From Eledone cirrhosa (taxonomy: Eukaryota): 64,000 nucleotides of DNA. Of this stretch, positions 1-61,648 are shown piece after piece. Both the position numbers and the translations under genes were made by a program. The DNA lies in the NCBI GenBank assembly GCA_964016885.1, contig OZ024756.1, positions 6,944,001 to 7,008,000 of the forward strand, read 5' to 3'. The notes beneath the pieces are model-generated. The model did not search any database and had not been told where the DNA came from. It worked only from the letters and a program-made list of their open reading frames with translations. Position 1 is the stretch's first letter, and every line of letters begins with the position of its first letter.

Positions 1-451
1 CCACGAACGTTTAGATGCCACCTCATATAAATACTAATGAATCAGACCAGCTATGCCATATGAAATATGGAAAGCAACTGTATCCCTCCAAAGCAAATGT
101 ATTCCCCCAAAGGCAGTCATATACCGATTAGATTAATCTTACAAACACCCCACATTATCAACCTTACATTTTTGGCCAAGTTCTGACTCTATTAACAAAT
201 ATTTTAAACGAAATTACTAATGATTATAGGAAGATGTGCCCAAGCTATTATAAGCAAAGGAAAATTAACTGCAACTTAAAATCTTCACGTGAGACATAAA
301 CACTGAAAAGAGTTAATTATAGTAGAACCACCCACTCAAATATTTAGGAGTTGAAGCTGGTGAAACCGATGAAATACATAACACAAATAAACAAGAATGA
401 AAATTGAAACTACCCTATAGACATACTTAAAAGTGAAATTAACGAAACAAG

Positions 452-3302
452 ATAGTAGACATACAGAAGTTAGCTGCAGCCCTAGTAATAAACTATATCT
501 CACCACCAGAAACATAGTAGACATATACAAGTTAGGTGCAGTCCTAGTAATAAACTATATCTCACCACCAGAAACATAGTAGACATATACAAGTTAGGTG
601 CAGTCCTAGTAATAAACTATATCTCACCACCAGAAACATAGTAGACATATACAAGTTAGGTGCAGTCCTAGTAATAAACTATATCTCACCACCAGAAACA
701 TAGTAGACATATACAAGTTAGCTGCAGTCCTAGTAATAAACTATATCTCACCACCAGAAACATAGTAGACATATACAAGTTAGCTGCAGTCCTAGTAATA
801 AACTATATCTCACCACCAGAAACATAGTAGACATATACAAGTTAGCTGCAGTCCTAGTAATAAACTATATCTCACCACCAGAAACATAGTAGACATATAC
901 AAGTTAGCTGCAGTCCTAGTAATAAACTATATCTCACCACCAGAAACATAGTAGACATATACAAGTTAACTACAGTCCTGGTAATAAACTATATCTCACC
1001 ACCAGAAACATAGTAGATATACAGAGGTTAGCTGCAGTCCTAGTAATAAACTATATCTCACCACCAGAAACATAGTAGACATATACAAGTTAGCTGCAGT
1101 GCTAGTAATAAACTATATCTCACCACCAGAAACATAGTAGATATACAGAGGTTAGCTGCAGTCCTAGTAATAAACTATATCTCACCACCAGAAACATAGT
1201 AGACATATACAAGTTAGCTGCAGTCCTAGTAATAAACTATATCTCACCACCAGAAACATAGTAGACATATACAAGTTAGCTGCAGTCCTAGTAATAAACT
1301 ATATCTCACCACCAGAAACATAGTAGACATATACAAGTTAGCTGCAGTCCTAGTAATAAACTATATCTCACCACCAGAAACATAGTAGACATATACAAGT
1401 TAACTACAGTCCTAGTAATAAACTATATCTCACCACCAGAAACATAGTAGACATATACAAGTTAACTACAGTCCTAGTAATAAACTATATCTCACCACCA
1501 GAAACATAGTAGACATATACAAGTTAGCTGCAGTCCTAGTAATAAACTATATCTCACCACCAGAAACATAGTAGACATATACAAGTTAACTACAGTCCTA
1601 GTAATAAACTATATCTCACCACCAGAAACATAGTAGACATATACAAGTTAACTACAGTCCTAGTAATAAACTATATCTCACCACCAGAAACATAGTAGAC
1701 ATATACAAGTTAACTACAGTCCTAGTAATAAACTATATCTCACCACCAGAAACATAGTAGACATATACAAGTTAACTACAGTCCTAGTAATAAACTATAT
1801 CTCACCACCAGAAACATAGTAGACATATACAAGTTAGCTGCAGTCCTAGTAATAAACTATATCTCACCACCAGAAACATAGTAGACATATACAAGTTAAC
1901 TACAGTCCTAGTAATAAACTATATCTCACCACCAGAAACATAGTAGACATATACAAGTTAGCTGCAGTCCTAGTAATAAACTATATCTCACCACCAGAAA
2001 CATAGTAGACATATACAAGTTAACTACAGTCCTAGTAATAAACTATATCTCACCACCAGAAACATAGTAGACATATACAAGTTAACTACAGTCCTAGTAA
2101 TAAACTATATCTCACCACCAGAAACATAGTAGACATATACAAGTTAGCTGCAGTCCTAGTAATAAACTATATCTCACCACCAGAAACATAGTAGACATAT
2201 ACAAGTTAGCTGCAGTCCTAGTAATAAACTATATCTCACCACCAGAAACATAGTAGACATATACAAGTTAACTACAGTCCTAGTAATAAACTATATCTCA
2301 CCACCAGAAACATAGTAGACATATACAAGTTAACTACAGTCCTAGTAATAAACTATATCTCACCACCAGAAACATAGTAGACATATACAAGTTAGCTGCA
2401 GTCCTAGTAATAAACTATATCTCACCACCAGAAACATAGTAGACATATACAAGTTAGCTGCAGTCCTAGTAATAAACTATATCTCACCACCAGAAACATA
2501 GTAGACATATACAAGTTAACTACAGTCCTAGTAATAAACTATATCTCACCACCAGAAACATAGTAGACATATACAAGTTAGCTGCAGTCCTAGTAATAAA
2601 CTATATCTCACCACCAGAAACATAGTAGACATATACAAGTTAGCTGCAGTCCTAGTAATAAACTATATCTCACCACCAGAAACATAGTAGACATATACAA
2701 GTTAGCTGCAGCCCTAGTAATAAACTATATCTCACCACCAGAAACATAGTAGACATATACAAGTTAGCTGCAGTCCTAGTAATAAACTATATCTCACCAC
2801 CAGAAACATAGTAGACATATACAAGTTAGCTGTAGTTCTAGTAATAAACTATATCTCACCACCAGAAACATAGTAGACATATACAAGTTAGCTGTTGTTC
2901 TAGTAATAAACTATATCTCACCACCAGAAACATAGTAGACATATACAAGTTAGCTGCAGTCCTAGTAATAAACTATATCTCACCACCAGAAACATAGTAG
3001 ACATATACAAGTTAGCTGCAGTCCTGGTAATAAACTATATCTCACCACCAGAAACAGTAGACATATACAAGTTAGCTGCAGCCCTAGTAATAAACTATAT
3101 CTCACCACCAGAAACATAGTAGACATATACAAGTTAGCTGCAGTCCTAGTAATAAACTATATCTCACCACCAGAAACATAGTAGACATATACAAGTTAGC
3201 TGCAGTCCTAGTAATAAACTATATCTCACCACCAGAAACATAGTAGACATATACAAGTTAGCTGCTGTCCTGGTAATAAACTATATCCACGCCACCAGAA
3301 AC
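452..3302. repeat. 62-bp tandem satellite/minisatellite, about 46 near-identical copies
   Basis: Unit CATAGTAGACATATACAAGTTAGCTGCAGTCCTAGTAATAAACTATATCTCACCACCAGAAA recurs with period 62 (GTCCTAG at 541, 603). Variants GTTAGCTGCAG, GTTAACTACAG and GTTAGGTGCAG. Confidence 0.97.
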
Positions 3303-8952: not shown

Positions 8953-9386
<434 letters not shown>

Positions 9387-13453: not shown

Positions 13454-13544
<91 letters not shown>

Positions 13545-13628
13545 ATACTTGGGGAGGGTCATATTTGTGTAATATTGCCAGAATTAATAACCAGAGTATA
13601 ACAGTAACTATCGACTTCCATACACCAG

Positions 13629-55902: not shown

Positions 55903-56512
55903 TTTCGTTTCTGAATTTGTTTAGCAAGATTCTTTATCTGAAATCGTGTGTTGAAACCGATATTGTTATACTTTGGGAGGGCCATGTTGCCAATAAGAAA
56001 CACACGCACCAGTTGCTTTCACTTCAATTTATTATATATTTATAAATTTATAAATTTACAAATCTACAAACCTATAAATTTCTGGTTGGTTGGTTGGTTC
56101 CACAACCAGATAGTTGTTTATATATATAGTCATACGCCATTTTGTTTCTGGGGAGAGGCAGAACAAACTTTCCTCCAAGAGATGTTATAGTTAATATTTT
56201 TGTCTTTCAAGGACCATATCCACTCTTCCATCTTTCTTCATATCATTGGCCATAAATGGCGTAGGATAGAAGAAAGAAAAGGCACAGAAACGAAGAAAGG
56301 AATCCCCAGTCACTGAAGAGGTCACAGAGTGTGTGACGAAAGGACTATGACTATATATATAAACAACTATCTGGTTGTGGAACCAACCAACCAACCAGAA
56401 ATTTATAGGTTTGTAGATTTGTAAATTTATAAATTTATAAATATATAATAAATTGAAGTGATAGCAACTGGTGCGTGTGTTTCTTATTGGCAACATGGCC
56501 CTCCCAAAGTAT

Positions 56513-56520
<8 letters not shown>
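55903..56520. mobile_element. Family E (Neptune-related) foldback pLTR with a captured insert
   Basis: Arms about 55960-56133 and 56347-56520 are reverse complements. Shares AAATGGCGTAG, AACCAACCAA and the CCCTCCC(A)AAGTATAACAAT tail with the 13539-15229 element. Confidence 0.85.
56308..56352 (+). ncRNA. Minimal type I hammerhead ribozyme (family E)
   Basis: AGTCA CTGAAGA G GTCACA GAGTG TGTGAC GAAA GGAC TA TGACT: perfect stems I and II. Confidence 0.8.
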
Positions 56521-56742: not shown

Positions 56743-59371
<2,629 letters not shown>

Positions 59372-61133: not shown

Positions 61134-61648
61134 TACAAAATTAATATATGATAAACACTAATACAAGTATATAAATGTTTGTATTGCAAAGGACCAAGTT
61201 AGCTAGATTGAAAAATACTAATTAAATTAATACAGTTTGCCTGTCTGGAATCAATAGTGCCATAAATCAATAGTCCCATAAATCAATAGTCCCATAAAAA
61301 CGGCTGCTATTTCTGGCGGCACACTGGGACACCATGTGCGTTCAACAACACATTTCTCTCAGTCTTCCTAAGTATTTTGAAGTGAAACATACCAATTTCT
61401 GGATACCTGCAGCTGAGCACAGAAATGGAATTTTCACTTATTGTTACGAAACAGATTTGAGTTTTGAAATTTAAATTTGTACAGGTATCACGGCTATTGC
61501 CAATATGGGTTTGTTTTAATGATTTATTATTTTAAATCGAGACAGGTAAACTGTATTAATTTAATTAGTATTTTTCAATCTAGCTAACTTGGTCATTTGC
61601 AATACAAACACTTATATACTTGTATTAGTGTTTATCATATATTAATTT

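Follow-up and report, generated by a model that had tools for sequence, protein, structure and literature searches.

Introduction

Short segments of foreign or duplicated DNA have been found at retroelement insertions and at repaired breaks in several systems, which are cited here from the accessible parts of each paper. For L1, 22 templated insertions are reported, typically shorter than 250 bp and with a template within 15 bp (10.1101/2024.08.27.596794), and inverted local duplications of 52–220 bp are described together with one co-inserted local pre-mRNA (PMC10191854). With R2 (PRINT) the 3′ end of the cDNA can prime further synthesis, with the cDNA itself or nearby target DNA as template, or can switch to a different RNA, and this often follows full-length synthesis (PMC11371274). 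Hybrid foldback insertions in yeast are 2 to about 150 bp long and are primed by microhomology at one end and end-joined at the other (PMC11724301); SD-MMEJ uses templates about 30 bp away (PMC5728401), and polymerase theta inserts are generally shorter than 25–30 nt (PMC12426944, PMC5728401). Among PLEs, inverted 5′-truncated copies are a normal structure whose formation is still called undefined (PMC8557442), and for the PLE protein PAc, a predicted dimer, cutting and extension of both strands are described together with two start sites (PMC11167929). Non-LTR retrozymes consist of head-to-tail tandem units with a type I hammerhead in each (10.64898/2026.07.22.740005). Three further reports (10.1101/2024.12.14.628481, PMC13282606 and PMC5625713) have, in their accessible parts, little bearing on the case described here.

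We analysed a 64-kb stretch of DNA (the window, by which we mean the whole of that stretch) in which a PLE-type foldback of one family, E, carries at its centre an inverted copy of a piece of a neighbouring foldback of another family, A. The inserted piece (106 nt, below 250 bp) is a duplicated genomic segment foreign to element E, and it resembles the L1 cases in that a non-element segment of this size class has been duplicated at the 5′ side of an insertion. The 15-bp range of the L1 templates is far exceeded, since the donor here lies 1.37 kb from the target, and, unlike in L1, the insert sits between two overlapping head-to-head PLE-type cDNAs in an assembled, invertebrate-like genome. R2 differs in having a single cDNA, a fixed rDNA site and extra templates that are almost always U6 RNA (PMC11371274). 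The products of yeast foldback and SD-MMEJ resemble this insert in the inverted copy and in a small hairpin at the joint, and perhaps in being primed by microhomology on one side and end-joined on the other; they are mostly 5–34 nt long and lie beside the break, polymerase theta inserts are generally under 25–30 nt, and no retroelement takes part in any of them. Both families studied here are like described PLEs (PMC8557442) in their foldback form, their two 3′ ends, a candidate hammerhead-like motif and (TA)n sites, but their tails are 57 nt (E) and about 89 nt (A) long as against a published 30–40 bp, and the probably local DNA captured here at an inversion point has no counterpart in the accessible text of PMC8557442 or PMC11167929. 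Our literature search, which covered subscription papers thinly, found no PLE analogue of a templated local insertion. The insert is most likely a repair scar of a known kind, here formed at unusually long range in a little-studied class of elements.

Results and Discussion

An inverted copy of a neighbouring junction

Local alignment of the insert with its donor (coordinates of these and the other features are collected in Table 1) shows the former to be the reverse complement of the latter, gap-free and identical at 105 of 106 positions (E = 2e-47 by BLAST within the 64-kb window). The first-pass annotation had described such a reverse-complement match with about one mismatch, and that description holds, as does the length it gave for the copy; its span of 56150–56255 starts one position too early. 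The sole mismatch, C at 56172 against A at 57974 (both given on the + strand), is a synonymous AGA/AGG difference in the endonuclease frame of family A. The donor begins 1,370 nt past the right end of the family E insertion, and the gap between the facing ends of copy and donor is 1,634 nt. As had been claimed, the donor spans the breakpoint of the family A insertion: the antisense arm stops at 57931 (which pairs with 58409), protein homology runs from 57927, and the five bases between these limits, ATATG (57927–57931), are common to both sides of the junction. An 11-mer over the junction occurs once per strand in the window, at 57925 in the donor and at 56211 in the copy, and the expectation that the junction should be confined to this locus holds for the 64 kb, where donor and copy are its only occurrences.

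The 106-base inverted insert is confirmed as a genuine feature of the sequence as assembled. An assembly or consensus artefact, by which a repeat-driven mis-join placed a piece of the neighbouring foldback in the centre of E, is very improbable. Read foldback chimeras are mostly perfect palindromes, whereas a third segment is present here; in addition the window contains no N, the joints lie at the biological 5′ ends of E, and the copy differs from its donor by one base. In favour of such an artefact, tandem and inverted PLE structures do trouble assemblies (PMC8557442).

Table 1. Positions of the family E and family A features and of related elements in the 64-kb window
Feature	Position	Strand	Description
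E left arm	55903..56150	−	long 3′ end beside (TA)n to natural 5′ end; lacks the 84-nt block that holds the hammerhead-like core
E 3′ tail, left arm only	55903..55959	−	57 nt, missing from right arm
E natural 5′ end	56133..56150	−	18 nt; TA overlap to remainder of left arm; older E copy begins likewise
Captured inverted copy of A junction	56151..56256	−	64 nt endonuclease coding, 5-nt ATATG overlap, 37 nt antisense 3′ UTR arm
E right arm	56254..56520	+	begins 8 nt inside natural 5′ end; stops at short 3′ end in (TA)n
E type I hammerhead-like motif	56308..56352	+	core 56313, GAAA 56338, predicted cut after 56347
A antisense arm	56823..57931	−	long 3′ end beside (TA)n(GA)n run to junction; extra ~170-nt repeat
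Donor segment over A inversion junction	57890..57995	+	ATATG at 57927–57931
PLE GIY-YIG-type endonuclease C-terminal tail, 5′-truncated	57927..58151	+	74 codons and stop; CxxC-xx-E and N...CxH motifs
A sense-arm 3′ UTR/pLTR	58152..59248	+	hammerhead-like motif 59142–59208; short 3′ end in (TA)n
Older diverged single E copy	25577..25880	−	71–81% identity; reference for E's natural 5′ end
5′-truncated GIY-YIG element	13540..15230	+	ORF 13608–14669; 42-nt inverted 3′-end copy

Arms and joints of the family E insertion

In the family E insertion two cDNAs lie head to head, and DNA matching the neighbour separates their 5′ ends. The arms are identical at 174 of 175 positions (55960–56134 against the right arm), and each lacks parts that the other has: the left arm is without an 84-nt block kept in the right arm (56264–56347 in right-arm terms), with a TA overlap at the join, and the right arm is without the first 8 nt of the 5′ end and without the 57-nt 3′ tail. 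Neither arm can therefore be a copy of the other, which argues that both were made from RNA.

The older E copy lies directly after a (TA)n run and begins with sequence matching the 18 nt to the left of the insert, so these 18 nt are taken to be E's natural 5′ end; their final 10 nt equal 56254–56263. TACGCCATTT and AAATGGCGTA, between which the copy had been said to sit at a turnaround point, are accordingly no special motif but this natural 5′ end, present on both arms, and TACGCCATTT does not adjoin the copy, since 8 further bases of E's own 5′ end intervene. We also considered the 16 nt to the left of the insert as snap-back filler, a possibility that the older E copy rules out. At the right joint AAA is common to insert and E (56254–56256), and at the left joint there is no visible microhomology.

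Our scan for hammerhead-like motifs, whose thresholds were fixed after the E motif had been seen, found one in the window and none in 30 shuffles; the fold of the E hammerhead-like region has a z value of −0.72, and Rfam gave no hammerhead and only 6 weak matches under the gathering score. The 84-nt deletion of the left arm ends at the predicted hammerhead cut (56133–56134 against 56346–56348), and one family A left arm (in the 9 kb foldback, 9108–9114) stops 3–4 nt from the cut predicted for A. Ribozyme-cut RNA may sometimes be used as template; the remaining A arms show no such edge.

Nature of the family E element

The 3′ ends of E and of the 5′-truncated GIY-YIG element of Table 1 are 84% identical over 77 nt, and the two have the AAAATGGCG motif and a hammerhead-like core in common. 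The ORF of that element scores 0.95 by features to a GIY-YIG cluster, and visual inspection of its motifs places them in the CCHH type, in contrast to those of family A. From these likenesses in sequence, the element is a likely representative of the kind of parent from which E came. E itself has the marks of a non-autonomous derivative of a PLE pLTR, namely ends and a hammerhead region like those of a coding PLE, a (TA)n target and a tail. Its architecture fits the biochemistry of PAc, in which both strands are cut and extended and two start sites for the reverse transcriptase explain the tail (PMC11167929). We rejected E as a non-LTR retrozyme, as it is found as an inverted pair and a single old copy. 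That E is unrelated to A, as first proposed, agrees with the lack of any arm-to-arm match and with the different PLE types of the two. The AAAATGGCG motif lies near the 5′ end of E (56254–56262) and of the related coding element (14886–14894), and we take it to resemble a YY1 initiator-type site.

The family A neighbour

The endonuclease piece of family A is 48–50% identical to P0001 and P0002, the first of which bears an RT, and 834 representatives match it at E ≤ 0.001. Protein homology starts at Ile-Trp, at 57927, exactly at the junction; this IW motif is present in 123 of 152 fetched homologues, in 98 of which the preceding residue is H or Y, and the EEW-IW start made by the junction occurs in none of the 152. 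The CxxC and CxH motifs around E and N agree with the definition of the Hydra clade (PMC8557442); they are present in the window piece and were seen in 148 and 144 of the 152 fetched homologues. A CxCX5C linker together with a GIY-YIG part free of CCHH cysteines was seen in P0001 and P0057, and the linker was found in 13 of the 152, which are mostly short fragments; the corresponding region is missing from the window. P0001 matches RVT_1 at E = 3e-6, slightly below the curated cut-off, and Pfam returned no family for either window ORF, the A endonuclease piece included. Family A is likely a Hydra-clade PLE, judging by these motifs, and membership is likely rather than proven because both linker and RT are missing from the window. 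The hammerhead-like fold of A (z −3.25) was missed by our own motif scan and by Rfam.

There are five A foldbacks in the window, each with one arm that reaches the long 3′ end and another that reaches the shorter one, with microsatellites beside both; (TA)n flanks are present in all five. The other four are short, and none of them reaches the ORF or carries the ATATG junction. The large A insertion has the same two 3′ ends beside microsatellites, so the simplest reading is that it arose where it now lies, and if it was built in place its junction is local.

The arms of the large A insertion differ at 28 of 817 sites. Its antisense arm has, at 57514–57874, an extra diverged repeat of ~170 nt (73%) that is not in the sense arm, which may mean that the arms were made from different templates or that a unit was lost from one of them. 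In the four short A foldbacks (9114, 17894, 19387 and 36029–36037) one arm begins within a few bases of CATATGTTG, a site ~70 nt upstream of the A hammerhead core, and the 5′ end of E is similarly far upstream of the E core. The common start at CATATGTTG suggests that transcripts begin at a set position in the pLTR.

Local origin and relative age

The first-pass annotation had proposed a survey of foldback centres for inserts that match nearby DNA, and we carried this out in the window for 25 centres set by hand. A near single-copy donor was found at one of the 25 (E56, the family E centre discussed here; the entry for A57 is the same match from the other side), and three further near matches at foldback centres are ordinary family copies. 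We also surveyed the window past its first 3.4 kb for all matches at most 6 kb apart that were at least 25 nt long and at least 90% identical, and no second case at a centre was found. The probability that a junction copy lies within 1.74 kb by chance is 5% if there is one per 64 kb, 15% if there are three per 64 kb, and 1% if 10,000 are assumed in 3 Gb, and chance nearness to a dispersed junction copy is thus unlikely. With a junction that is single-copy in the window, an A insertion apparently built in place and a chance proximity of 1–15%, the proposal of copying from nearby is supported, and the insert is very probably of local origin, by whatever route.

A remote source would require that the A junction exists on a mobile master, or in read-through RNA, at many loci, and that its nearness here is coincidental. 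Inverted 5′-truncated copies are normal for PLEs (PMC8557442), and the mismatch count would suit a sister locus; the count does not discriminate, however, as at least one mismatch is expected with P = 0.44 for a copy of the same age as E, and at most one with P = 0.12–0.37 if the donor was a sister locus. The junction is found nowhere else in the window, the four other A foldbacks included; this, the ends of A that point to construction in place, and the low chance of proximity make a remote source quite improbable. Searches outside the window were blank: the 78-aa frame made by the junction has no near-length homologue, neither that frame nor the 74-aa piece (0 of 2) is in the exact-match collection, and the junction pattern was not found in metagenome contigs. 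A control motif conserved in family A was likewise absent from those contigs, so that these blanks say nothing about copy number.

The arms of E differ at 1 of 175 positions and those of A at 28 of 817, and so low a divergence has P = 0.016 if the E arms are as diverged as those of A. By this measure E is probably younger than A, although arm divergence is an imperfect clock because two arms may derive from different RNAs. The earlier dating of E after A agrees with the lower arm divergence; the copy as such dates the capture and not E, since repair of the centre at some time after E had inserted would leave much the same picture.

How the insert may have been made

Our tentative first choice, to which we give somewhat less than an even chance, is a locally templated insertion during E integration in which the right cDNA folded back onto its own flank. 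Judging from the anatomy of E and from PLE biochemistry, the PLE protein would have cut both strands of the (TA)n run and primed two cDNAs at E's two 3′ starts, and these would have grown toward each other until the right one stopped 8 nt before the 5′ end, at AAA. The free 3′ end of the right cDNA would then have folded to the same strand of the right flank, exposed by resection or unwinding, and annealed at the start of the donor, possibly with a 5-nt hairpin extension that would give an 8-nt primer. A host polymerase would have copied ~103 nt away from the break, through the A junction, after which the new strand would have been released and end-joined, with no visible homology, to the full-length left cDNA. 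Since the right cDNA and the template of the insert are both on the − strand, folding back in this way yields the observed orientation, priming side and direction.

The geometry of the locus is consistent with such a fold-back: the donor is on the right, the copy is inverted, the microhomology is at the right joint, and synthesis runs away from the break. A 5-bp hairpin like that at the right joint was found in 0.36% of 20,000 random local inserts, and in 0.045% together with AAA (the hairpin was noticed post hoc), and the + strand of the window has a single occurrence of the 8-mer that the hairpin implies, precisely at 57890 (also post hoc). Being symmetric, the hairpin gives no direction. 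The AAA overlap alone occurs in 3.9% of random inserts in this AT-rich DNA and is weak, and the left joint has no significant hairpin (one as good forms in 11% of random inserts). Also against folding back, published local templates lie much closer to the break, and this is a single case, at one of 25 centres. Folding back leaves unexplained why the copied piece straddles the A junction; the straddling may be fortuitous or may be connected with the hairpin that A can form. By analogy, the mechanism would resemble the hybrid foldback of yeast and the snap-back of R2 and L1 more than a classical polymerase theta insertion.

The mechanisms named in the first-pass annotation were template jumping and polymerase-theta-like repair, and the second of these is weakened. 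Classical inserts of the latter kind are mostly shorter than 25–30 nt and come from near the break (PMC12426944, PMC11724301, PMC5728401), so the label fits poorly to 103–106 nt copied from 1.4–1.6 kb away, and on this size and distance we rejected the E insert as a classical polymerase theta insertion.

Template jumping is kept as a rival, though a rather unlikely one. The reverse transcriptase of the left arm, on reaching E's 5′ end, would have jumped end-to-end to a + transcript (for example a nascent RNA) ending at 57995 and copied 106 nt across the A junction; the product would then have met the right cDNA at AAA and been joined there after removal of an 8-nt flap. Such a jump fits a left joint that is flush with E's natural 5′ end and free of homology, a left cDNA in which 84 nt had been passed over before, the gap having an edge at the predicted ribozyme cut, and a right arm trimmed by 8 nt at a 3-nt overlap. 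It needs, however, a + RNA that ends exactly at 57995, and no sign of a promoter or of such an RNA was found. The mismatch, A in the donor (+ strand) to G in the copy, has the direction of A-to-I editing, but the 42 nt of stem, in which editing of a full A foldback transcript would be expected, contain no A-to-G change, and the changed A follows a 5′ G, which is a disfavoured context for A-to-I editing; a lone transition is in any case unremarkable. Precedents exist in the local pre-mRNA co-inserted once with L1 (PMC10191854) and in the extra-template junctions known for R2 (PMC11371274).

A bolder form of the same idea, which we consider doubtful, is that the insert records how PLE foldbacks are closed, the PLE reverse transcriptase bridging its two cDNAs by serial jumps, first over the ribozyme cut in its own RNA, with the 84 nt skipped, and then from the RNA 5′ end to the transcript or hairpin loop of an unrelated PLE 1.6 kb away. 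If true, this would be an in vivo sign that ribozyme-cut RNA serves as template (not seen for PAc in the accessible text of PMC11167929), and PLEs would locally shuffle sequence between clades.

The insert could also postdate the integration of E, if E first inserted as a near-perfect palindrome whose centre was later broken, and the repair drew on nearby template DNA or on a stray piece set free from the A hairpin or cruciform. Near-perfect inverted repeats are fragile, and E would form one of ~250 bp. The captured piece also straddles the base of A's potential 477-nt loop. Insertions derived from fragile regions are known in yeast (PMC11724301). We nevertheless think later repair unlikely, because the 5′ ends are kept on both arms (0 and 8 nt lost), so that there was little end loss, the divergence of the copy matches that of the E arms, and the 84-nt gap is internal and aligned with an RNA feature.

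Implications

A foldback centre with a traceable donor provides a rule open to testing wherever a genome is rich in repeats, in that the side of the donor, the orientation of the copy and the side of the microhomology tell a DNA foldback from an RNA jump. At ~25 foldbacks per 64 kb, the whole genome should hold enough cases. The insert further gives a relative date, in that capture came after A, and shows DNA passing between unrelated PLE families. Its weight is modest, being one case in assembled sequence with a type of scar known from L1, R2 and break repair.

Other features of the window

The window has a GC content of 0.26–0.41 per 2 kb and is AT-rich and rich in microsatellites and short repeats; a dispersed repeat of SINE-like form has what we take to be a cephalopod-like look. 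The ~25 foldback insertions in its 64 kb lie in (TA)n runs and belong to many families, and many of their centres are perfectly palindromic. The foldback centre at 61250–61536 is 287 nt long, is unmatched elsewhere in the window and has a triple 17-nt repeat at its start.

Host-like segments of 62–88 nt at 17557–17644 and 18492–18580 are inverted relative to each other (97%) around an A foldback and 400 nt of unmatched DNA, and this pair may represent either another inverted duplication of local DNA or a foldback of greater age. Two inverted single-partner pairs, 41737–41902/44807–44979 and 49981–50054/52641–52714, are ~90% identical and 2.6–3 kb apart and probably belong to sparse repeat families. 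Tandem arrays are present at 449–3302, with ~46 units of 62 bp at ~96% identity, and at 37624–38487, where a 15-bp array, probably a minisatellite, has an open frame of repeated pentapeptides.
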